A stretch of DNA of 64,000 nucleotides from an uncultured Candidatus Saccharibacteria bacterium (GTDB lineage Bacteria; Patescibacteriota; Doudnabacteria; UBA920), in assembly GCA_964402965.1 (NCBI GenBank), contig CAYODY010000001.1, positions 5,724-69,723 of the forward strand, written 5' to 3'. Position numbers and translations under genes: made by a program. The notes beneath the pieces are model-generated. The model saw only the letters and a list, made by a program, of their open reading frames with translations. It did no database searches and was not told the DNA's origin. Positions within the stretch are counted from its first letter, which is position 1, and each line of letters begins with the position of its first letter. Shown here in pieces: positions 2,743-40,007 of the stretch.

Positions 2743-3267
2743 CTATTTCGAATCAATGATTTTCTCAAATGATTCAAAATCTTGTAAAAATTCTCCTACA
2801 AAGTCAGCATGTGCACTCAGTGCTTTCTGGGAACGAATCCTGAGGTACTGCTGGCCAATTTTTGTAATAGACTTCACATCATTTTCGGCAAGCACAATGT
2901 GCTTCCAAACTTTCTCCTCCTGTTCGTTAGTGTCGGCATACTCAAGCGCAGAACGGAAATCTTTAATAGAGTCGTTTGCACGGAGGTACGCATTTAGGAT
3001 ATCTTCGAACTTATTGCCGAAGTTATTGTTTTGTTCGAGTTTTTTAACGCCCGCTTCGAAATGCTCTGTAAACAAAGCTTCTCTTTGAATCCGCGCTTGT
3101 TGCGCTGCTTCATTGGCGTAGAAACTCAAAACCCAAAGTGAGTAAACACTTCCGACTGCGAAAAGAAAGATTCCTGCTAACTTCAACAGCTTAGATGCGC
3201 AGTTATCGATACAAAATGTCATCTTGGCTTCCTCCTGTTTCCTCTGCCTGTAGTCTGAGCAAATCAT
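2743..3267 (-). CDS. hypothetical membrane-anchored protein
   Basis: 174-aa ORF with one N-terminal TM helix (LLKLAGIFLFAVGSVYSLWVLSFY) and a helical remainder. No family recognised. A weak hairpin follows it at about 2700-2725. Confidence 0.4.
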   Translation of the reverse strand: MICSDYRQRKQEEAKMTFCIDNCASKLLKLAGIFLFAVGSVYSLWVLSFYANEAAQQARIQREALFTEHFEAGVKKLEQNNNFGNKFEDILNAYLRANDSIKDFRSALEYADTNEQEEKVWKHIVLAENDVKSITKIGQQYLRIRSQKALSAHADFVGEFLQDFESFEKIIDSK

Positions 3268-3344
3268 ACTCTTTTTGCTGTAAAAGTCAATGGCTTTGGT
3301 TAAATAAAACCCACTGTAGGTTAGTTTTCTGCTATTATATAGAC

Positions 3345-4361
3345 ATGTCTAAAGTTGCTTTGGTTAATATTGTCTACAATTCAATGAAATATATTCCGAA
3401 GGTTTTTCCTTCGGTATTAAATCAGACACATAAAAACTCAACCTTTTATGTAGTAATTGCAGGCAATGAAAATGGTGAAAAAGAGTTTATTCAAGAAAAC
3501 TATCCTGAAATTGTAATTATTGATCCAGGGTATAACATTGGTTTTGCTAAGGGTCATAATGAGCTGTTTTCTTCCATAGGTGCAGATTTTTTTCAGCTTG
3601 TTAATCCTGATTTAGTTCTAACTGAAAATTTTGTAGAGGAAATGCTAAAGCCATTTGAAGATCCAAACATTGGGGCAGTTTCTGGAAAAATTTTACAATA
3701 CGATTTCGAGAAAAATTCAACTACAAATATAATTGATACTACTGGAGTTCTTATTTCAAAATCTGGACGTGGCCGAGATAGGGGACAACATGAAGTAGAT
3801 TCTGGTCAGTACGATACTCAGACGAACTTAATTGCTGTTTCAGGCGCCGCGGCTATGTATCGAAAATCTGCTTTAGAAAGTGTAAAATATACGTATCCAA
3901 ACAGGCATGTAAAAGCAGGACAAACTGAGTATTTTGATGAAGAGTTTTTTATGTATTGGGAAGATGTAGATTTGTCTTGGCGAATAGTTAATAGTGGGTG
4001 GAAAATTCAGTACAACCCGAAAGCTATTGCTTACCATGGTAGAACAGCCGCATCTAGTCCTGGAGGGTACAAAAAAGTCTTGCAATTTATTAAACACCAT
4101 AAAAAAATATCTTCAAGAATTTTAGAGTGGAACTATAAAAATCACATTTTTATGTTCATAAAAAATTCACCTAAATTCTATTTTAAATTTTTTCAAAGGG
4201 AAATTTTCTATCAAATATACGTACTTGTTTTTGAATCAGCAACTTTAAAAATTCTGCCAACATTTTTCAAACAATTGAAAAGCATGTGGCAGAAAAGAAA
4301 ATTTATTCAATCAAACCGTAAAATCTCAATAGAAGATATGGAAAACCTTTTCACTAGCTAA
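3345..4361 (+). CDS. family-2 glycosyltransferase (rhamnosyltransferase-like)
   Basis: Start trimmed from track ORF 3195 to the in-frame ATG at 3345 (MSKVALVNIVYNSMKYIPKVFPSVLNQT is the GT2 N-terminus). Internal GT2 motifs are present (DPGYNIGFAKGHN, YWEDVDLSWR). It sits next to the rml operon. A TATTAT box at 3334-3339 suggests a very short leader. Confidence 0.75.
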   Translation: MSKVALVNIVYNSMKYIPKVFPSVLNQTHKNSTFYVVIAGNENGEKEFIQENYPEIVIIDPGYNIGFAKGHNELFSSIGADFFQLVNPDLVLTENFVEEMLKPFEDPNIGAVSGKILQYDFEKNSTTNIIDTTGVLISKSGRGRDRGQHEVDSGQYDTQTNLIAVSGAAAMYRKSALESVKYTYPNRHVKAGQTEYFDEEFFMYWEDVDLSWRIVNSGWKIQYNPKAIAYHGRTAASSPGGYKKVLQFIKHHKKISSRILEWNYKNHIFMFIKNSPKFYFKFFQREIFYQIYVLVFESATLKILPTFFKQLKSMWQKRKFIQSNRKISIEDMENLFTS

Positions 4362-4416
4362 GTTTTGAAAACTCTGATTAAAAATTAAACTCCCATTTAA
4401 CTCGAACTAACTTACT

Positions 4417-5292
4417 ATGACTTTGTCTATAATAATACTTTTATATAATTCACGTGATGTAATTGAGGTAACACTTGATTCTGTTTTTGCGTCGAAAGTA
4501 AATTTTCCATACGAAGTCATTATAGTAGATAATAATTCTCCGGATGATGGTGTTGAATTAGTTAAGACAAAATACTTAAGCCGGCCTGAATTAGCAAGTA
4601 AAATTAAATTAATTTTACGTGACAGTAACGATGGTTTTGGAATAGGCAATAACGCAGGGTTAAAACAAGCAGTGGGTGACTATTTGTTGCTTTTAAATTC
4701 TGATACAAAACTTTCACCTGAAAACTTAGAGATCATGGTGGACTTTATGAAAACCCGACCAGATATTGGTGCCGCTACTTGTAAGTTAATAAAAGCAGAT
4801 GGGGAAATAGACTTAGCATCTCGTCGCAGTGAACCAAACTTAGCTCGGTCATTCTTTAGATTGTTCGGCTTCCAAAAACTATTTCCTAAAATCTTTGGTG
4901 GCTACAACATGTTAAATAAAAGCCCGGATATAGAAAGTGAGATTGAAGCATGCAGTGGTGCGTACACTTTAATGTCCAGGAAAGCCTATGAAGTTTCAGG
5001 TGGTTTTGACGAGCGATATTTTATGTATGCTGAAGACCTTGATCTTTGTCGGACAATCCGCGAATCTGGATTAAAAATTTGGTGGTATCCAAAAACAACA
5101 TGCGTGCATTTTAGAGGGCAGTCTACTAAAAAAACATCACAAAAAATGCTTCATGCTTTTTATCATGCAAACTGGATTTACTATAAAAAGTGGTATAGCA
5201 CGAAATACTATCATTTAATGGATCTTCCTGTGTATTTTGCGAATTGGAGTTTGTACTACTTTAAATCAGTGCTAAATTTTTTCAAAAATTGA
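4417..5292 (+). CDS. family-2 glycosyltransferase
   Basis: MTLSIIILLYNSRDVIEVTLDSV...IIVDNNSPDDG, then the DxD region and a YAEDLDLC motif typical of GT2 (GT-A fold). Confidence 0.8.
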   Translation: MTLSIIILLYNSRDVIEVTLDSVFASKVNFPYEVIIVDNNSPDDGVELVKTKYLSRPELASKIKLILRDSNDGFGIGNNAGLKQAVGDYLLLLNSDTKLSPENLEIMVDFMKTRPDIGAATCKLIKADGEIDLASRRSEPNLARSFFRLFGFQKLFPKIFGGYNMLNKSPDIESEIEACSGAYTLMSRKAYEVSGGFDERYFMYAEDLDLCRTIRESGLKIWWYPKTTCVHFRGQSTKKTSQKMLHAFYHANWIYYKKWYSTKYYHLMDLPVYFANWSLYYFKSVLNFFKN

Positions 5293-5324: not shown

Positions 5325-6767
5325 ATGTCAGATGAATCTTTGCACCCCACAGGGGAACCTAAGAAACCGTTAATTGCGTCAGAACAAATGCGCAAGTTTT
5401 TAAATATGGAGTCTGGTCAATCACAGCAAGAACCACTACATGCGGGAGATATTCCACCAGACTTACCATTTTTAGAAACATTAGAAACTCCACCAAAAAA
5501 TGCTTTGGAAATAATGAGTGCAGGTGCAAATCCAAAAGTTGGAGAAGGGAAACATTCAAATCCAATCACTCAAATTTTGCGTCCTTCTACAGAAAAAGGC
5601 CACGAAGCATACGCGTTTGTTCTTTGGGCATTAAAGAGTATTGTTCCGTACGTTGTAATTTTCGCTATTGGGCTTGGCTTGTACTTTTTCTATTTCAGCG
5701 ATTTTTCTATTAACAATTTATTCAAGTCCAATAACTTAACAATTGAAAATGTTAGTACGACAACAAATGCAGATTTGGAAAAACTTAAGACTTCTGAAAA
5801 AATAAATTACGATGCTTGGATAAAACAATTTTTCTTTGAAGTAAATGATGCTGAAATTATTTCTATGGATACAGATGTATCTGGAAATGGTTTAACTAAC
5901 TTTGAAAAATATTTATTAAATTTAAATCCGAAAGTTTACAGTACTCGAGGGGGCAATCAGCCTGATGGGCAATTGGTAATAAATGGCACAAGTCCATGGA
6001 CCGGAAAACCTTTCACTGACAAACAAAAAGAATTAGTAGATAAATACTTAAATAAGGAAGTAATTAGTAATCGCATTACTGCTGCGGCATTAACACGTGG
6101 TGCAACAAAATTTGCGGAATATGTAAATCCTGATTCTCCATACTACATAACTCCAAGTACAGAACAAACCGGAGTACCTCAAACACCTGGTAGTTCAGGA
6201 ATCTATGAGCCAACAAATACAAACCCTGAAATTGTAAACAATCAAACGGCGGGGAATGTAGCACAGCAAACACAGAATCAATCTCAAGGAAATCTAAATT
6301 CAAACACAGATATCAATCTAAGTGTTCCTGGAAGAATAGAAATTCCTTCAAACAATATTTCAGTACCATTAATATGGACTACCGCTGTTGCAAATTTTGA
6401 AAAGGACTTAAAAAAGGGAGTTGTTCACTACCCAGGAACAGCGCTTCCAGGTCAAACTGGAACAAGTTACATTTCTGGACATTCCAGCGGATATCTTTGG
6501 GACAAGTCACCATACAAAACAATTTTTGCTGGTTTAGGAAATGTAAAAGATGGTACTTCGTTTACAGTTACAGTAACTCTTAAAAATGGAAAACAGGTTA
6601 GGTATAATTATGTTGTTGAACGTCGTGGGGAGTATGCAGCGAACGATCAAGCACAATTTGTGAACACAGCAGATTCTGTTGTAGCGCTATCTACATGTTG
6701 GCCAATAGGAACTACAGCAAAACGATTAGTTTTGTTTGGAAAACTCACTCAAACAGAGAATCTATAG
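5325..6767 (+). CDS. sortase-family transpeptidase (Cys type) with a long N-terminal cytoplasmic/low-complexity region and one TM helix
   Basis: The C-terminal ~150 aa carries the sortase catalytic triad context. This is VVHYPGTALPGQTGTSYISGHSS (His), ALSTCWPIG (the TLxTC-type Cys, codon tgt) and AKRLVLFG (Arg). A TM helix lies at about residues 100-125. Confidence 0.7.
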   Translation: MSDESLHPTGEPKKPLIASEQMRKFLNMESGQSQQEPLHAGDIPPDLPFLETLETPPKNALEIMSAGANPKVGEGKHSNPITQILRPSTEKGHEAYAFVLWALKSIVPYVVIFAIGLGLYFFYFSDFSINNLFKSNNLTIENVSTTTNADLEKLKTSEKINYDAWIKQFFFEVNDAEIISMDTDVSGNGLTNFEKYLLNLNPKVYSTRGGNQPDGQLVINGTSPWTGKPFTDKQKELVDKYLNKEVISNRITAAALTRGATKFAEYVNPDSPYYITPSTEQTGVPQTPGSSGIYEPTNTNPEIVNNQTAGNVAQQTQNQSQGNLNSNTDINLSVPGRIEIPSNNISVPLIWTTAVANFEKDLKKGVVHYPGTALPGQTGTSYISGHSSGYLWDKSPYKTIFAGLGNVKDGTSFTVTVTLKNGKQVRYNYVVERRGEYAANDQAQFVNTADSVVALSTCWPIGTTAKRLVLFGKLTQTENL

Positions 6768-6900: not shown

Positions 6901-7116
6901 TGGGTCATAGTTGAGTTTGGTGAGAAAACTGTACTCACAACCTATGGCTGATAGATTTATGTCCATCACCCTGAAATATTAACTTAGTCAGGGCTTTGGT
7001 GGACAATGATCTGTCTAATCAATATCAAACTGATAGTTAGCAGAAACTTTAGTAGGTTTGAACAATTGTTGTTTGAGTCGTTACTAAAGTACACAATTCC
7101 TGAGGAGGATAAAAAG

Positions 7117-8046
7117 ATGATTCAGAAATTTTTAATCGCAATATTTTTGCTGCTGGCGTTGTCAGTGGTCGGATTTGGCCAGGAATACAACCTGGTCAAG
7201 GTGCAGGACAACGGTGCTATACAGAAATGTGGCCCGTTGCCGGACTGGGACTTCTCAAAAGTCGTCCCATACAAGCCGCGATTCAGAACCGCAGCAGTCG
7301 GGTATGTTCGTGTCGAGAGATATAATAAAATCACTCTCGCTTGCGAACAAACGTCGTTGCCCAACTACCGTTCGAACAACGGTTATGGTTGGGTGCTAAA
7401 CGTCGAGGGAAGCCATTATGGTTTCACTAGTACTGGGCAAATTCGGTACCTTGGTACCGCTGATGGTGCTTACCTGAAATGTCACAACCACGTTGTGGGA
7501 TTTTGGGAGGTGAATGTGAATATTGTTGAGGAAAAGGAAGAATTTGTTCCTGTTCCGAAACCTTCGCCTTCACCTTCGCCCAGTCCCTCGCCTTCGCCGT
7601 TGCCTGTCGCACCGATTTGTAAAACGGTGAATGGTCAAGCCAACACTGTTGGTCTGACTATAGAGCAGGCCGTCAAGAGCGGTTTGCTTGTTGACGGAGA
7701 AGGAAACTGCGCCCAGCATCCTGAACCGGTGGTTCAGGAAAAAGTGAAGAAGAAAGGCGCTAACAAGTGGCTTTCTGCACTTTGTGGAGCCGCAGGTGGT
7801 GGGATAACCGCTTACCTGAGGACCGGACAGCTCGGCGGAACTCTAGCAGGTGCTGGAGTAGGCAGCGGTGCTGGCCTTGGTATAGGCTTCATTCCGGGTT
7901 CAAAAACCTGGTACGGTTGTTTTGGCGGCGCAGCGGGGTTGTTAATCCCGAAGAACGCCGTAAAGAACCAAAGTAACGGAGGAGGTCCAATCCGCGGTAG
8001 CGGAAACGGGCAAGGTGCGCCGGTCGTTAGGCCGACTCGCCAATAG
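7117..8046 (+). CDS. secreted protein with (PS)n linker and glycine-zipper C-terminus, encoded on a compositional (high-GC) island
   Basis: Start placed at ATG 7117, directly after a GAGGAGG RBS; the track ORF starts at 7006 in AT-rich sequence. Features in order are a signal peptide MIQKFLIAIFLLLALSVVGFG, a Cys-containing domain, PSPSPSPSPSPSPLP, a second Cys-containing segment and a Gly-rich hydrophobic tail (GAAGGGITAYL...GAGVGSGAGLGIGFIPG...GGAAGLLIP). GC content and codon usage (CTG, GGC, CCG) differ sharply from all neighbours. Confidence 0.6.
   Translation: MIQKFLIAIFLLLALSVVGFGQEYNLVKVQDNGAIQKCGPLPDWDFSKVVPYKPRFRTAAVGYVRVERYNKITLACEQTSLPNYRSNNGYGWVLNVEGSHYGFTSTGQIRYLGTADGAYLKCHNHVVGFWEVNVNIVEEKEEFVPVPKPSPSPSPSPSPSPLPVAPICKTVNGQANTVGLTIEQAVKSGLLVDGEGNCAQHPEPVVQEKVKKKGANKWLSALCGAAGGGITAYLRTGQLGGTLAGAGVGSGAGLGIGFIPGSKTWYGCFGGAAGLLIPKNAVKNQSNGGGPIRGSGNGQGAPVVRPTRQ
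7561..7602 (+). repeat. in-frame Pro-Ser dipeptide repeat coding tract
   Basis: ccttcgccttcaccttcgcccagtccctcgccttcgccg encodes PSPSPSPSPSPSP. Confidence 0.7.
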
Positions 8047-35052: not shown

Positions 35053-38000
35053 ATGAAATATATGAACAATTACGAATCTAGTCCGCGTTCAGTTTCAAGT
35101 TATGGCACTCAAGCAAAGCCGTCTTTTCGAGACTTGGCGCTTAAGAGTGCTGTTTTTGTAACTGCATTTTCGATGGTCTTTTCAGTTTTCATGCCAATAG
35201 CAAAAACTGCACAAGCCAACCATGATCCATTCAATGGTCAGGTATTTGTTAAAGAAAATAAAAACCATAAGGTAGATATTTGTCACGCTCCAGAAGGTCA
35301 AGGTGGAGCAAAATATAATCAGCAAAATGTGAGTATTGATTCAATTGTAAAAAACAATGGACATGACTCTCATTCTTCAGATGTAATCCCACCATTTCAC
35401 TACAAAGAAAAAAATAACTCTCAAAATGTAATTTCTTATAGTGGCAAAAATTGGAATTCATTAAACGAAGCTATTTGGAATGCAGATTGTAAAGTAGCAA
35501 AGTTAACTCTACTTAAAAAAGTTCAGGGTGGAGACGCTCTAGCTACTAGCTGGACTCTAAACGCTGATGGACCAGTAGATTTATCTGGTGCAACAGGCAC
35601 AAGCGCTGTTTCAAATAAAACAGTTCCTGCTGCTCAATACACTCTTTCAGAAACTGGCCCATCTGGATACTCAGCATCAAATTGGGAATGTGTTAACAAA
35701 TCTACTCAACCGGTTGCTGTAACTGGAGGAAATATTGTTACTTTAACAGATAGTTCCGAAGTAACATGTACAATTACTAATACTTTTATTGATGTGGAAA
35801 TCGATCCATGTCTTTTAGATAACATTGTAAATGAAGATTGTAACCCAGATCCATGTGATGAGTTAACTAAGAATTTGCTCACAAATCAGGTAATGGATTG
35901 TAATCCATGTGATTTAGAATCTGCAGTAAATAACCCAGATTGTAACCCAGATCCTTGTGATCCTAATATCGTCGCATCAAAGCATGATTCAGAATCAAAT
36001 AATGAAAATGATAATTGTCCAAAGCCAAAAAAGCGCTATTTAGTTATTAAAAAAGTTTGGCAAGGTTTTGAAGGTGAAGCAGGTCCTTCTAATAAAGGTG
36101 AAATTCAGGTTAATGTAAACTCAGACCTAGATGAAGAAGAATGTGATTACGACAAAAAAGGGGAGTTTTCTTGTAAAATCCGTTTCACCGAAGGCACAAC
36201 TGTTTCTATTGATGAAGAAAATATTCCAGCTGGATGGACAGTAGATCAGTCAACAGTAGGCGACATAGTTCCAAATTGTGATGAAGATTCCGAAGATGAT
36301 AATGTTGGGCCTTTCAAACTATTTGGCAAAAAAGACGACAAGGGTGATGAAGATGATAAAGATGATAAAGATGATAAGGATTGTACACATACAATCGTAA
36401 ATGTTTACAAACCAGCGGAACCTTGTGGAACAGAATTAGTAGCGAACGGAAATTTTGAACTTCCAGAAGTTAAGGATGGTGCTAATTGGGAAGTTTTCCC
36501 ATCAGGTACTCCAGGAATGGGTTGGTCTGTTAATTGGGTTCGCGAAAGCAAAGACTCTCCAGTTCCAGCTAATATGGAATTGCATGAAGGCGTAAATGGA
36601 TGGCTAGCACATAGCAGTAACCAATACGCTGAATTGGATTCAGACTGGGGAGGTCCTTCTAGTAATCAAAATGGCGAAGATGCATCTGTTGTTATGTACC
36701 AAGATTTAATTACTGTACCAGGCGGAACATACACAGTTAGCTTATGGACATCTCCACGTCCAGGCCAAGGCAATGCTCAAAACAAGACTGAAGTCAAAAT
36801 GGGTTCTACATTGCTAGATACTATTATTGAAGATGGGTCTTCAAACAGCAATACTGTTTGGACTAAGCACACTTACAGTTTTGTAGCAGAAGAATCAATG
36901 ACCCGTTTAAGCATTACAGACTTAGGTGTTGGTAATACTCTAGGTGGTTTTGTAGATGATGTTTCTGTAAAACAAGATTGTCTTTCAAACGTTACAATCT
37001 GTAAATATGATAATACTGAAACTCCACTATCTAACTGGAATGTATTATTAAAGGGCGATTTGTTAGAAACAGTTACTGTAAATTCTAATAGTTCAACTGG
37101 GGCTAACTCTGTAAACGCACTGGAATCAGGCCAAGATTATTTGGTTGAAGTTTCAGGGACATGGCAAAATCGTACATTCGAAACTGTAGATGCAAGTTAC
37201 ACAACTCCAGACAGCTGGTCCACAGTACTTCCTGCCCCTCAAGGTGGTTACCCGGATGACTTGTTGGAAACTCAAATAAATGGAAATTTTGTAAATTGGG
37301 GTCCTTACTCAAGCGGTCATAAATATCAGCTAACAATGGCTGGTAATGGAAGTACAGCAAATTTCAGAGTATTCGATGGTGATGCAAATACTAATACTCA
37401 ATTCCCAGATTGGTTCGGAGATAATATTGGATCTTTAACAGTTAAGATTTACCCTGTATACCAAGGAATCACTGGTGTTAGTGGTTGTGTAACTTTAGAA
37501 AATGTTCCGTACAACAGCTATAAGCTTGATGAAATAATGCAAGCAGGTTGGGAAAACCAATCCGGTCAAAACACAACTTCTGTTGTAGATTCATCTACTG
37601 AAACATTTAATCTAGTAAACAAATGTACTGGTGAAGAATGTCGTCAAACAAAACCACAACTACACTTAATTAAAGTAGTGTGTGATGATTTCTCTGACAT
37701 TCAAGGAAACTATAGTGCAGATGAATATGATGATACTAATGGTAACTATGTTCACTTCAACAATTACCCAGAATTTAATAACGTTGTAAAACCTGTTAAC
37801 CCAGAAGAAATCCCAAGTTCCGAATCTGGTTGTGAAACAAGATCTGGTTGGAGCTTTACTCTTTCTTCTGATCAAAACCAAGATCAGGATGTACAAACAG
37901 TGACTACTGGTGAATCAGGAGAATATGTTGGCGATCTACCAGAAAGCGGAGTTCTATGGGTTAGCGAAGTAATGCAAAAAGGTTACGACTTTGGTGCCAT

Positions 38001-39318
38001 CCGTTGTTACAACGATGCTCTAAATGGGGATAACCTAGAATTCATAAACTTAGAAGGTGATTTGCCAGCAAATGTTTACTGTATTGCATACAACATTGAA
38101 CAAATAGTGCCTTGTGAAGTTACTCCTATTTACGCGGTAAGTGGTGCAGCAACACAATTCCTTGGATTAAAAGAAGGTTCTGCTCCAACTGATTTGAAAA
38201 ACCCAGCAGATTATTCTGGTGGTTCAGCAGGTGCTGTCCCTGTAACTCCAACTGGTTATGCAGGAGCATGGGATGGTTCGGCTTTAGATCCTATTATGAC
38301 TGCCTTACCTGGAGCAGTTTACGTGAGCAATGACACGGTACAACCAACCTTTGGTGGTGGTGCAGGTCACGATGGTTCAGTGGATTCATGGAGACTGTTC
38401 AGCGATACCTTTACTATTCCAGCTGGTGCAACAGGAATATCTTCACCAAGTTTGCACTTTGCAGCGGATAATGAAGTTTCAGTATTCTTTGATGATGTCT
38501 TAATTGGTTCAAGCGCAAGCTTTGGTTCTGTAACCAGCGTTGCTCTTCCGTCACTAACACCAGGAACTCACACATTGAAGTTTGCTGTTAAGAATTACGC
38601 TTTTGACCAAACAAATAACCCAACAGGTGTTATCTATAAGTTAGATACAATTACATATGACTGTGATAGTCATGGCGACTCTCACCGCAACCTAGCTGGT
38701 ATGGTTTATTTGGATGAAGACCAGGATGAAACTAAAGATCCTGAAGAAAATCCAATAGAAGGTCTAACAGTTAAACTTATACGCGCTACTGCAGATGATG
38801 AAGATGAAGACTTGAATTTGGAAGAAGAAGAAATTGCTTCTGATGTCTCTGATGTAGATGGTAATTACTCATTTAGTGATGTAGCTGATGGATGTTATAT
38901 CCTACGTGAAGTCCCTGAATCTTACCAACAAACAGAACCTCCTGTAACACATGAGTATTATGTTAAAGTAGGGGATGCAGATTGTAACTTTAATCTAGTT
39001 ACTTTCGCAGACTACTTGTTTAAAACAGCTAACGCAGCTGACTCTTCTACAGTATTCGTTGCGTACACAGGACAACCACTAAACTTTGGAAACTTTTTGT
39101 CAGGTGGTTCTAATGGTGGTGGTTCAAGAGGCGGCTCTAGTGGAGGTTCTACTCCATTAAATCCACAAGTTTTGGGTGATACCACAACAGTACCTAGCGT
39201 ACTAGGAGCTACTACAGAGCTTCCTCGCACAGGTTCTCCAATCTCAGTACTATTCGTACTAATCACCCTGTTAAGTGGGGCAGTTTTGGCACCAAAAGTG
39301 CTTAAAATTACTCGTTAA
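35053..39318 (+). CDS. giant LPXTG-anchored surface adhesin (1421 aa) with Cys-rich and acidic repeats and Cna-B/SpaA-like modules
   Basis: An N-terminal signal/TM is present. There are DCNPDPCD-type Cys repeats (about 35.80-35.98 kb) and a DDKGDEDDKDDKDDKD acidic repeat (about 36.33-36.38 kb). Prealbumin-like Cna-B motifs are present (SDVDGNYSFSDVADGCYILREVPESYQQTEP; ...VTCTITNTF). A Gly/Ser linker precedes the sorting signal LPRTG (39220-39234), a hydrophobic stretch and the basic tail KVLKITR. Confidence 0.75.
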   Translation: MKYMNNYESSPRSVSSYGTQAKPSFRDLALKSAVFVTAFSMVFSVFMPIAKTAQANHDPFNGQVFVKENKNHKVDICHAPEGQGGAKYNQQNVSIDSIVKNNGHDSHSSDVIPPFHYKEKNNSQNVISYSGKNWNSLNEAIWNADCKVAKLTLLKKVQGGDALATSWTLNADGPVDLSGATGTSAVSNKTVPAAQYTLSETGPSGYSASNWECVNKSTQPVAVTGGNIVTLTDSSEVTCTITNTFIDVEIDPCLLDNIVNEDCNPDPCDELTKNLLTNQVMDCNPCDLESAVNNPDCNPDPCDPNIVASKHDSESNNENDNCPKPKKRYLVIKKVWQGFEGEAGPSNKGEIQVNVNSDLDEEECDYDKKGEFSCKIRFTEGTTVSIDEENIPAGWTVDQSTVGDIVPNCDEDSEDDNVGPFKLFGKKDDKGDEDDKDDKDDKDCTHTIVNVYKPAEPCGTELVANGNFELPEVKDGANWEVFPSGTPGMGWSVNWVRESKDSPVPANMELHEGVNGWLAHSSNQYAELDSDWGGPSSNQNGEDASVVMYQDLITVPGGTYTVSLWTSPRPGQGNAQNKTEVKMGSTLLDTIIEDGSSNSNTVWTKHTYSFVAEESMTRLSITDLGVGNTLGGFVDDVSVKQDCLSNVTICKYDNTETPLSNWNVLLKGDLLETVTVNSNSSTGANSVNALESGQDYLVEVSGTWQNRTFETVDASYTTPDSWSTVLPAPQGGYPDDLLETQINGNFVNWGPYSSGHKYQLTMAGNGSTANFRVFDGDANTNTQFPDWFGDNIGSLTVKIYPVYQGITGVSGCVTLENVPYNSYKLDEIMQAGWENQSGQNTTSVVDSSTETFNLVNKCTGEECRQTKPQLHLIKVVCDDFSDIQGNYSADEYDDTNGNYVHFNNYPEFNNVVKPVNPEEIPSSESGCETRSGWSFTLSSDQNQDQDVQTVTTGESGEYVGDLPESGVLWVSEVMQKGYDFGAIRCYNDALNGDNLEFINLEGDLPANVYCIAYNIEQIVPCEVTPIYAVSGAATQFLGLKEGSAPTDLKNPADYSGGSAGAVPVTPTGYAGAWDGSALDPIMTALPGAVYVSNDTVQPTFGGGAGHDGSVDSWRLFSDTFTIPAGATGISSPSLHFAADNEVSVFFDDVLIGSSASFGSVTSVALPSLTPGTHTLKFAVKNYAFDQTNNPTGVIYKLDTITYDCDSHGDSHRNLAGMVYLDEDQDETKDPEENPIEGLTVKLIRATADDEDEDLNLEEEEIASDVSDVDGNYSFSDVADGCYILREVPESYQQTEPPVTHEYYVKVGDADCNFNLVTFADYLFKTANAADSSTVFVAYTGQPLNFGNFLSGGSNGGGSRGGSSGGSTPLNPQVLGDTTTVPSVLGATTELPRTGSPISVLFVLITLLSGAVLAPKVLKITR

Positions 39319-39365
39319 ACAGGTTGGCATGCATTGAAGCATGAAACTTAGCTAAAACTTAAAAA

Positions 39366-39390
39366 GGGCCCCCTAGAGGGGCTCTTTTTT
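39366..39390 (+). terminator. rho-independent terminator after the adhesin gene
   Basis: GC-rich hairpin GGGCCCCC-tag-AGGGGCTC followed by T6. Confidence 0.6.
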
Positions 39391-39404
39391 GTTATACTAA
39401 AGAC

Positions 39405-40007
39405 ATGAAAACCTATTTTAAATACTTGGGGATTATACTCTTAGCTGTTGTTATTGTTTTCGTATTGCTAAATTTCGATTATTTTAAGAAACAACTGAGT
39501 TATATCTTAAGTAAACCTCAAACAAAACAAGACGACCAAGCGCTAAGTAATAGTGAGAATTTAAAAAGTATAATGGAGCAAAACTTCCTATCTATTCCTA
39601 GTTTAGATATAAAAGCTCCAATTAAATTTGTAACTCAAGCTAATGAAAAAGCTTTCCAAGAAGCTTTAATTGATGGTGTTGTTCAATTTCCGGGAACAGC
39701 TAAAGTTGGAACAGTTGGGAATACATATATTTTTGGTCATTCGTCAGACTTCGCTTTTAGTAAAGGAAAATATAAAACAGTGTTCGCACTACTACCAAGC
39801 ATAGACATAGGCGCGGAAATTATTGTTTCGGACGAATCTGGAAAGGCGTTTACGTATGAGGTGATTAAAAAATTTGTTGCAAGCAAGAAAGATGTGCATT
39901 TGCTGGACCAAAATACAAATGGTGAGAAAATTCTAACTGTTCAAACTTCGTACCCAATAGGAACTGCTTTACAGAGATATATTGTGGTTGCTAGGTTAAG
40001 AGAATAA
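39405..40007 (+). CDS. sortase-family paralogue with Ser at the catalytic-Cys position
   Basis: 200 aa with an N-terminal TM. It aligns with the sortase domain of 5325..6767. The motifs are VVQFPGTAKVGTVGNTYIFGHSS (His conserved), ILTVQTSYPIG (codon tcg where the paralogue has tgt in ALSTCWPIG) and LQRYIVVARL (Arg conserved). It lies immediately downstream of the LPRTG protein. Confidence 0.6.
   Translation: MKTYFKYLGIILLAVVIVFVLLNFDYFKKQLSYILSKPQTKQDDQALSNSENLKSIMEQNFLSIPSLDIKAPIKFVTQANEKAFQEALIDGVVQFPGTAKVGTVGNTYIFGHSSDFAFSKGKYKTVFALLPSIDIGAEIIVSDESGKAFTYEVIKKFVASKKDVHLLDQNTNGEKILTVQTSYPIGTALQRYIVVARLRE

Follow-up and report, generated by a model that had tools for sequence, protein, structure and literature searches.

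A conserved family of sortases with serine at the catalytic cysteine position, encoded beside LPRTG surface proteins in Patescibacteria

The DNA analysed here (hereafter the window) is a stretch of 64,000 nucleotides (nt), positions 5,724 to 69,723 of contig CAYODY010000001.1 in assembly GCA_964402965.1. On its plus strand, positions 35053-39318 encode a giant secreted surface protein of 1421 amino acids (aa) ending in an LPRTG cell-wall sorting signal, and positions 39405-40007 encode a 200-aa sortase in which a serine, Ser182, stands at the place of the catalytic cysteine. The spacer between the two open reading frames (ORFs) is 86 nt, not 87 as given in an earlier note made by a model on the letters of this DNA. 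The two genes are one copy of a conserved two-gene module of the Candidate Phyla Radiation (CPR)/Patescibacteria, a group of ultra-small bacteria. With moderate confidence, we read its second member as a dedicated and possibly low-turnover sortase that would use a serine nucleophile. The serine could have been an oddity of a single genome; judged from the searches and alignments described below, Ser182 is instead the defining residue of a large and strictly conserved sortase family.

The Pfam Sortase profile PF04203 spans the full domain of the 200-aa protein (aa 62-198, profile positions 1-124 of 125) with 73.4 bits for a cut-off of 26.6, and the AlphaFold2 model adopts the sortase fold with a mean pLDDT (predicted local distance difference test) of 88.5. 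All 50 matches listed by Foldseek against the Protein Data Bank (PDB) are sortases, the best being 4d70_A (E-value 1.4e-11). This entry, the class D enzyme SrtD of Clostridium perfringens, is the best match in both sequence and structure, and the top PDB matches belong to classes D, C, A and E. Pfam, AlphaFold2, Foldseek and the family alignment together delineate an N-terminal membrane helix (aa ~2-26, hydrophobic over aa 2-22), a linker and a beta-barrel (aa 62-198) that carries His112, Ser182 and Arg191. The equivalent of the catalytic His, His112, is encoded at 39738-39740 within FGHSSD (the GHSS motif) and the equivalent of the catalytic Arg, Arg191, at 39975-39977 within GTALQR. The codons of Gln180, Thr181 and Ser182, which belong to the TLQTS motif of the family, occupy 39942-39950, with Ser182 encoded by TCG at 39948-39950. 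When the family profile was aligned with the solved structure 4d70, Ser182 and no other residue fell on the catalytic Cys, while His fell on His and Arg on Arg. Thus the protein has the fold, the His/Arg pair, the membrane anchor and the LPXTG-type substrate of the sortase superfamily (PF04203; MEROPS C60), and lacks the catalytic Cys of the TLxTC motif; its whole translation contains no Cys residue.

The window encodes a second sortase at 5325-6767, and its paralogy with the 200-aa protein, proposed in the earlier note, was confirmed with 32% identity and an E-value of 7e-21. The alignment extends over 169 aa, more than the roughly 110 aa first reported. The His of GHSS and the Arg are present as described there, and the segments around the TLxTC position align as stated: ILTVQTSYPIG (TVQTS, codon tcg) in the 200-aa protein and ALSTCWPIG (Cys458, codon tgt) in the paralogue. 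No defined sortase class could be assigned to the 200-aa protein, since every NCBIfam class model scored far below its cut-off: 46.4 bits versus 140 for the SrtD exception model, 44.9 versus 165 for class D, 31.1 versus 160 for class E, 28.5 versus 160 for class C, 24.2 versus 158 for GN and 20.8 versus 166 for class F. The generic sortase model TIGR01076 gave 30.4 for a cut-off of 39.35.

To describe the family, 389 relatives were retrieved from 5.8 billion proteins, and the best 120 of them (47-62% identity) were inspected. All 120 carry Ser at the Cys position, within the motif [TS][LVI]QTS[YW]P.GT[AS].[KQR]R. When 1.84 billion cluster representatives at 50% identity were searched exhaustively with HMMER, 3287 matches were obtained, the best 150 of which were aligned. 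Ser was found in 120 of the 146 aligned representatives and Cys in the other 26 (TL[MIV]TC[WTV]P), a further 6 sequences not covering the position; Ala, Gly and Thr were never found at this position among the 146. The His112 equivalent is present in 152 of 152 aligned relatives and the Arg191 equivalent in 145 of 146. Conservation within the Ser family peaks in TLQTSYP[IV]GTALKR, the strand and loop of the active site.

Neighbour-joining separates the sequences cleanly into a Ser clade and a Cys clade, a split that fits a single Cys-to-Ser event. The positions that separate the clades are foremost C182S and M/I180Q. Within the Ser clade Ser is found in 100% of the sequences and Gln at position -2 in 98% (TLQTS[YW]P), whereas all 26 members of the Cys sister clade have Cys, preceded at -2 mainly by Met (16) or Ile (6), then Ser (2) and Val (1). 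Two further positions are more fixed in the Ser clade: Asp115, which reaches 94% there versus a mixture of Asp, Asn and Tyr in the Cys clade, and Pro131. In other respects the CPR Cys-sortases of this sister clade (GHSS...TL[MI]TC[WTV]P), which includes the sortase at 5325-6767, resemble the Ser family: they are 32-40% identical to it and share GHSS, P184, G186, R191 and the N-terminal membrane anchor.

We also considered that another residue might be the true nucleophile, and rejected this. The window protein is free of Cys and 206 of the 231 Ser-type members have none in the sortase domain, so that no other thiol would be able to substitute; the serines of GHSS are found in the Cys clade too and hence do not compensate for the replacement.

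The codons of the serine were compared over 78 species-level loci, where all six Ser codons are used: TCT in 34, TCG in 18, TCC in 12, TCA in 11, AGC in 2 and AGT in 1. The three AGY cases (L061, L069 and L078) lie on separate tips inside TCN clades and correspond to independent switches. Each switch from TCN to AGY takes two nucleotide changes, passing through a Cys (TGY) or Thr (ACY) codon or occurring as a double hit, which argues that the serine is actively retained. At the level of the alignments, strict purifying selection on the Ser, His, Arg and Gln of the family is apparent.

For genomic context, we scanned one genome per GTDB species with the patterns GNxY[ILF]FGHSS and [LV]QTSYP[IV]GT, which are biased to the Ser type, and found a relative in 160 genomes. 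The records concerned are mostly labelled Doudnabacteria, Patescibacteria group or 'uncultured Saccharibacteria', with single records of Uhrbacteria and Yanofskybacteria. Contigs with the module also occur in metagenome-assembled genomes labelled Gammaproteobacteria (L036, L048, L063 and L066) and Binatia (L042), and many more are labelled 'uncultured Candidatus Saccharibacteria'. The labels of unrelated phyla probably reflect mis-binning or placeholder taxonomy and not the real distribution.

A gene whose product ends in an LPxTG signal lies directly upstream of the sortase gene, on the same strand, in 69 of the 79 evaluable species-level loci. The link with a neighbouring LPXTG megaprotein suggested in the earlier note, which called for a survey of related genomes, therefore extends to a conserved two-gene module. 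The motif is LPRTG in 59 of the 69 loci, LPVTG in 5, LPKTG in 2 and LPTTG, LPGTG and LPDTG in 1 each. The median gap between the partner and sortase genes is about 80 nt, and a signal-bearing partner was never found downstream of the Ser-sortase among the evaluable loci. An extended sorting consensus, P-Q-V-L-G-A-[AT]-T-E-LPRTG-x-P, recurs in the 69 partner proteins. Their length, by comparison, ranges from 137 to 1965 aa and their passenger domains are heterogeneous: just 31 of 74 partners resemble the 1421-aa protein of the window by BLASTP, mainly over the last ~200 aa. Three homologues on long contigs keep the same gene order, namely a giant protein ending in TLPRTG and an anchor, the Ser-sortase, HU and a response regulator. 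This ordinary synteny is far weaker than the LPxTG pairing: out of 80 loci, 23 have HU, 18 the response regulator and 5-7 the ribosomal genes.

The genes for the passengers seem to be hypervariable, or else frequently interrupted. An identical Ser-sortase (P0029) was observed on two contigs with different upstream giant genes, one being a single ORF of 1550 aa (L001:4895-9547) and the other consisting of two pieces, of 469 and 1047 aa, whose N-terminal part differs (L002:5241-9905). The exact 1421-aa protein of the window was absent from the protein collection, although both sortases of the window were present there.

In at least three cluster representatives (P0129, P0138 and P0157) the two partners are fused in frame, in the order passenger, (E)LPRTG, transmembrane segment, basic loop, second transmembrane segment and Ser-sortase. 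Two fusions were confirmed on contigs of independent assemblies (L089:3429-6188 and L090:4001-5554), the former with its own signal peptide. The fusion passengers carry CLIPPER/DUF11 domains, and the topology is consistent throughout: outside, in, outside. As Rosetta-stone evidence, these fusions indicate that the Ser-sortase acts on the product of the preceding gene, and the fused products may be self-processing proteins.

Two LPRTG proteins were found in only 2 of ~80 loci, in tandem upstream of the sortase in one (L069) and flanking it in the other (L024). A pilus-type (class C) role seems unlikely as a general reading, a judgement made without a search aimed at pilin motifs.

Taken together, the evidence leans towards a working active site in the Ser-sortase, because the His and the Arg do not vary, the Ser is never exchanged for Ala, Gly or Thr, the Met/Ile-to-Gln substitution accompanies it and the enzyme is in places fused in frame to its substrate. 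According to the mechanism that we propose, the surface protein would be exported by Sec and kept in the membrane by its C-terminal anchor, and the Ser-sortase, whose N-terminal helix anchors it in the same membrane, would bind the LPRTG signal. Ser182, with the help of His112, Arg191 and perhaps also Gln180 and Asp115, would then attack the Thr-Gly bond to form an oxy-ester acyl-enzyme. The amine of a cell wall precursor would resolve this ester as in penicillin-binding proteins or, if the site were less shielded, water would do so. A slow enzyme, even a single-turnover one, would be enough, as it would serve only one protein, encoded beside it or fused to it. Both the nucleophilic role of Ser182 and the nature of the acceptor are what we infer in this scheme. 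In its most complete form, the proposal is that of a first natural family of serine-nucleophile sortases: a His/Ser/Arg transpeptidase, possibly assisted by Gln180 and Asp115, which would have arisen once from CPR Cys-sortases, work at low or single turnover, be dedicated in cis to one hypervariable giant adhesin and be fused and self-processing in some lineages. We regard this complete form as evenly poised between right and wrong.

There are chemical precedents for such an enzyme. Transpeptidation in the cell wall runs either on a Ser ester, in the penicillin-binding proteins (D,D), which cross-link peptidoglycan via serine acyl-enzymes, or on a Cys thio-ester, in YkuD (L,D). The folds of both are unrelated to that of the Ser-sortase, and the analogy is mechanistic only. 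Swaps between Cys and Ser nucleophiles are also known within protease clans, for example the PA clan.

Several observations weigh on the other side. Catalysis in sortases relies on a thiolate/imidazolium pair, and it is not obvious that such a pair would suit the activation of a serine. No more than two or three changes in the active site set the Ser clade apart from its Cys sisters, which is little remodelling for a new nucleophile, and the same genome retains in the 5325-6767 protein a canonical Cys sortase that could do the chemistry. No column of the sortase alignment co-varies with the X of LPxTG (R versus V, K, G, D or T) over 57 pairs with R and 10 pairs without. Finally, the C184S mutant of Staphylococcus aureus SrtA is reported to lose most of its activity (summarised in PMC4827206).

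The best surviving alternative, which we consider possible though doubtful, is a conserved pseudo-sortase. Having lost catalysis, it would still bind VLGATTE-LPRTG and serve as a membrane receptor, chaperone or substrate trap that hands the giant protein to the Cys sortase at 5325-6767, and the conservation of Ser182, His112 and Arg191 would then reflect binding and not chemistry. Replacing the Cys of a Cys enzyme by Ser is a classic way to obtain a substrate trap, and the near inactivity of the SrtA mutant, the Cys paralogue in the same window and the slight remodelling of the active site beyond C-to-S and M-to-Q all agree with such a role. A dead helper also has a precedent in a sortase pathway: SipA/LepA of Streptococcus pyogenes, a signal-peptidase homologue without catalytic residues, is essential for the sortase-mediated polymerisation of pili (PMC4049620). 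Like the protein supposed here, SipA is an enzyme look-alike devoid of the nucleophile of its model and encoded with its clients; unlike the Ser-sortase, which keeps a chemically competent residue at every catalytic position, it has a signal-peptidase fold and has lost both catalytic residues. Pseudoenzymes usually let their remaining catalytic residues drift, whereas His, Ser and Arg are essentially invariant across the 120 clusters, Ser having been kept through the three independent changes of codon family. The fusions are also easier to understand as processing in cis than as a chaperone permanently tethered to its client. Moreover, the Cys sortases examined are not encoded near the giant protein/Ser-sortase module. 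An LPXTG gene adjoining a Cys-sortase was not seen in the three contexts examined (the window, L086 and L087/L088), a sample too small for a firm contrast with the Ser family.

It is rather unlikely, in our opinion, that the protein is an active Ser hydrolase or sheddase that cuts LPRT|G and detaches the giant protein from its anchor, so that it ends up in the medium or in a non-covalent surface layer. Whatever speaks for a functional active site applies to it equally. Chemical reasoning speaks for it as well: oxy-esters favour hydrolysis over aminolysis relative to thio-esters, and in subtiligase the Ser-to-Cys replacement made in subtilisin raises aminolysis over hydrolysis, implying the converse for a Cys-to-Ser change. 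However, penicillin-binding proteins do channel Ser esters to amines, and a full tripartite signal combined with a membrane-anchored enzyme is a hallmark of wall anchoring; as for the acceptor, the sequence data do not distinguish water from an amine. A sequencing or assembly error of one base in an ordinary Cys sortase, the last explanation offered in the earlier note, is refuted to the point of being negligible, as the identical 200-aa protein is found on 9 contigs from three collections (NCBI, ENA and Logan assemblies), the nearest homologues and most representatives share the Ser, all six Ser codons occur across species, Gln180 accompanies the Ser, and TCG is one base away from TGG (Trp) and not from a Cys codon, TGT and TGC needing a change of the third base in addition.

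The module can be compared with dedicated pairs of sortase and substrate genes known in Gram-positive bacteria, such as class B SrtB with IsdC and class D sortases with LPNTA proteins. Common to both are a membrane-anchored beta-barrel with His and Arg, a gene placed beside that of the presumed client and a tripartite signal. The Ser-sortase differs in having Ser for Cys, Gln at the x of TLxTC and class scores below the cut-offs. Its module uses a plain LPRTG signal with a conserved VLGATTE upstream, some of its members are fused to the substrate, and its occurrence appears mainly confined to records of CPR/Patescibacteria. When searched for a Ser-containing sortase, the PDB, the subfamilies of NCBIfam and Pfam and the open-access literature yielded none (subscription-only papers were outside the scope), and a family of Ser-variant sortases with a dedicated LPRTG partner is apparently undescribed so far.

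Sortases are defined as cysteine transpeptidases, and both inhibitor design and 'sortagging' rest on the thiol. A strictly conserved clade without this Cys would surprise sortase specialists, and whether a sortase can run on serine is now directly testable with a defined pair of enzyme and peptide. If the Ser clade is active, the sortase scaffold would support oxy-ester catalysis in a large and ancient clade and would offer a thiol-free, oxidation-insensitive ligase scaffold with the extended recognition motif VLGATTE-LPRTG. It would also add another switch between Cys and Ser nucleophiles, and the TCN/AGY codon pattern would be informative on the evolution of such switches. Should the clade be inactive, it would be, to our knowledge, the first conserved pseudo-sortase, a dedicated receptor of sorting signals. 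Whether the clade is active or not, the module singles out the main variable surface protein in many CPR bacteria, which are thought to live attached to other cells, and so points to likely host-attachment proteins and to the way they are mounted on the cell.

The presumed substrate of the window, the 1421-aa product of the ORF at 35053-39318, contains 30 Cys residues. From the N- to the C-terminus, it consists of a signal peptide, a SpaA_2 module, Cys-rich DCNPDPCD repeats, a D/K-rich run, a DUF642/choice-of-anchor C domain, a SpaA/SdrD_B module, a Gly/Ser linker and the sorting signal. The probable signal peptide (aa 1-55; 35053-35217, plus strand) was judged by eye from the hydrophobic core LALKSAVFVTAFSMVFSVFMPIA followed by AQA|N. 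Two prealbumin-like modules score above the Pfam cut-offs, SpaA_2 at aa 148-241 (67.6 bits) and SpaA/SdrD_B at aa 1216-1300 (37 and 33 bits), and a weak match to DUF642/choice-of-anchor C covers aa 462-640 (Pfam/NCBIfam). The translation shows the DCNPDPCD-type repeats at aa ~251-305 and the D/K-rich run at aa ~425-443, in agreement with the first description of the adhesin, which had counted 'several' prealbumin modules where Pfam finds the two. Directly after the signal peptide, a segment rich in Cys and His (aa ~70-117; window 35200-35400) reads VDICHAPEGQGG...NGHDSHSSDVIPPFHY; no Pfam model matched it.

The sorting signal itself occupies 39193-39318 on the plus strand and is made of SVLGATTE-LPRTG, a hydrophobic segment of 20 aa and the basic tail KVLKITR before the stop codon; the motif, the hydrophobic stretch and the tail can be read in the translation as the earlier note had them. 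LPRTG corresponds to aa 1390-1394 (39220-39234). The C-terminus reads ...VLGATTELPRTG-SPISVLFVLITLLSGAVLAP-KVLKITR, a tripartite signal, and the whole end ...PSVLGATTELPRTGSPISVLFVLITLLSGAVLAPKVLKITR; peptide excerpts comprising the LPRTG signal are VLGATTELPRTGSP and PSVLGATTELPRTGSPIS. The protein accordingly displays the features of LPXTG surface proteins, namely a signal peptide (by eye), LPXTG, a hydrophobic segment, a positive tail and prealbumin-like modules, and no other LPXTG-type protein was found within the 64-kb window.

The 86-nt spacer contains a GC-rich hairpin, GCCCCCTAGAGGGGC, at 39366-39392 with T-runs on both sides. The terminator scan called it on the minus strand (39382-39368), and the T-run of the plus strand was recognised by eye. 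Its layout suggests an intrinsic terminator working in both directions, or an attenuator, between the substrate and sortase genes, and attenuated read-through may keep the sortase at a lower level than its substrate.

The canonical Cys-sortase at 5325-6767 (plus strand) is a protein of 480 aa, identified by Pfam and alignment, with a long N-terminal extension, a membrane segment and a linker with the motif DTDVSGNGLTNFEKY; its Cys458 is encoded by TGT at 6696-6698. It differs from the Ser family by Cys in place of Ser and, in its clade, by Met or Ile in place of Gln. Upstream, 3195-5292 holds two ORFs resembling family-2 glycosyltransferases by eye, and downstream, 7006-8046 encodes a secreted or membrane protein of 346 aa with a (PS)n linker, a Gly-rich C-terminus and no LPXTG signal; substrates of this Cys-sortase are thus not encoded close by. 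Acidic repeats of the type DTDGDG/DxDxSGNGLTNFEKY were observed between the membrane anchor and the catalytic domain in this sortase (aa ~183-205), in some other members of the Cys clade and in several Ser-sortases; further sequences with them are P0137, P0140, P0154, P0165, P0190 and L086:5440-5709. They resemble the calcium-binding loops of thrombospondin type-3 repeats or dockerins and are an unusual accessory for a sortase.

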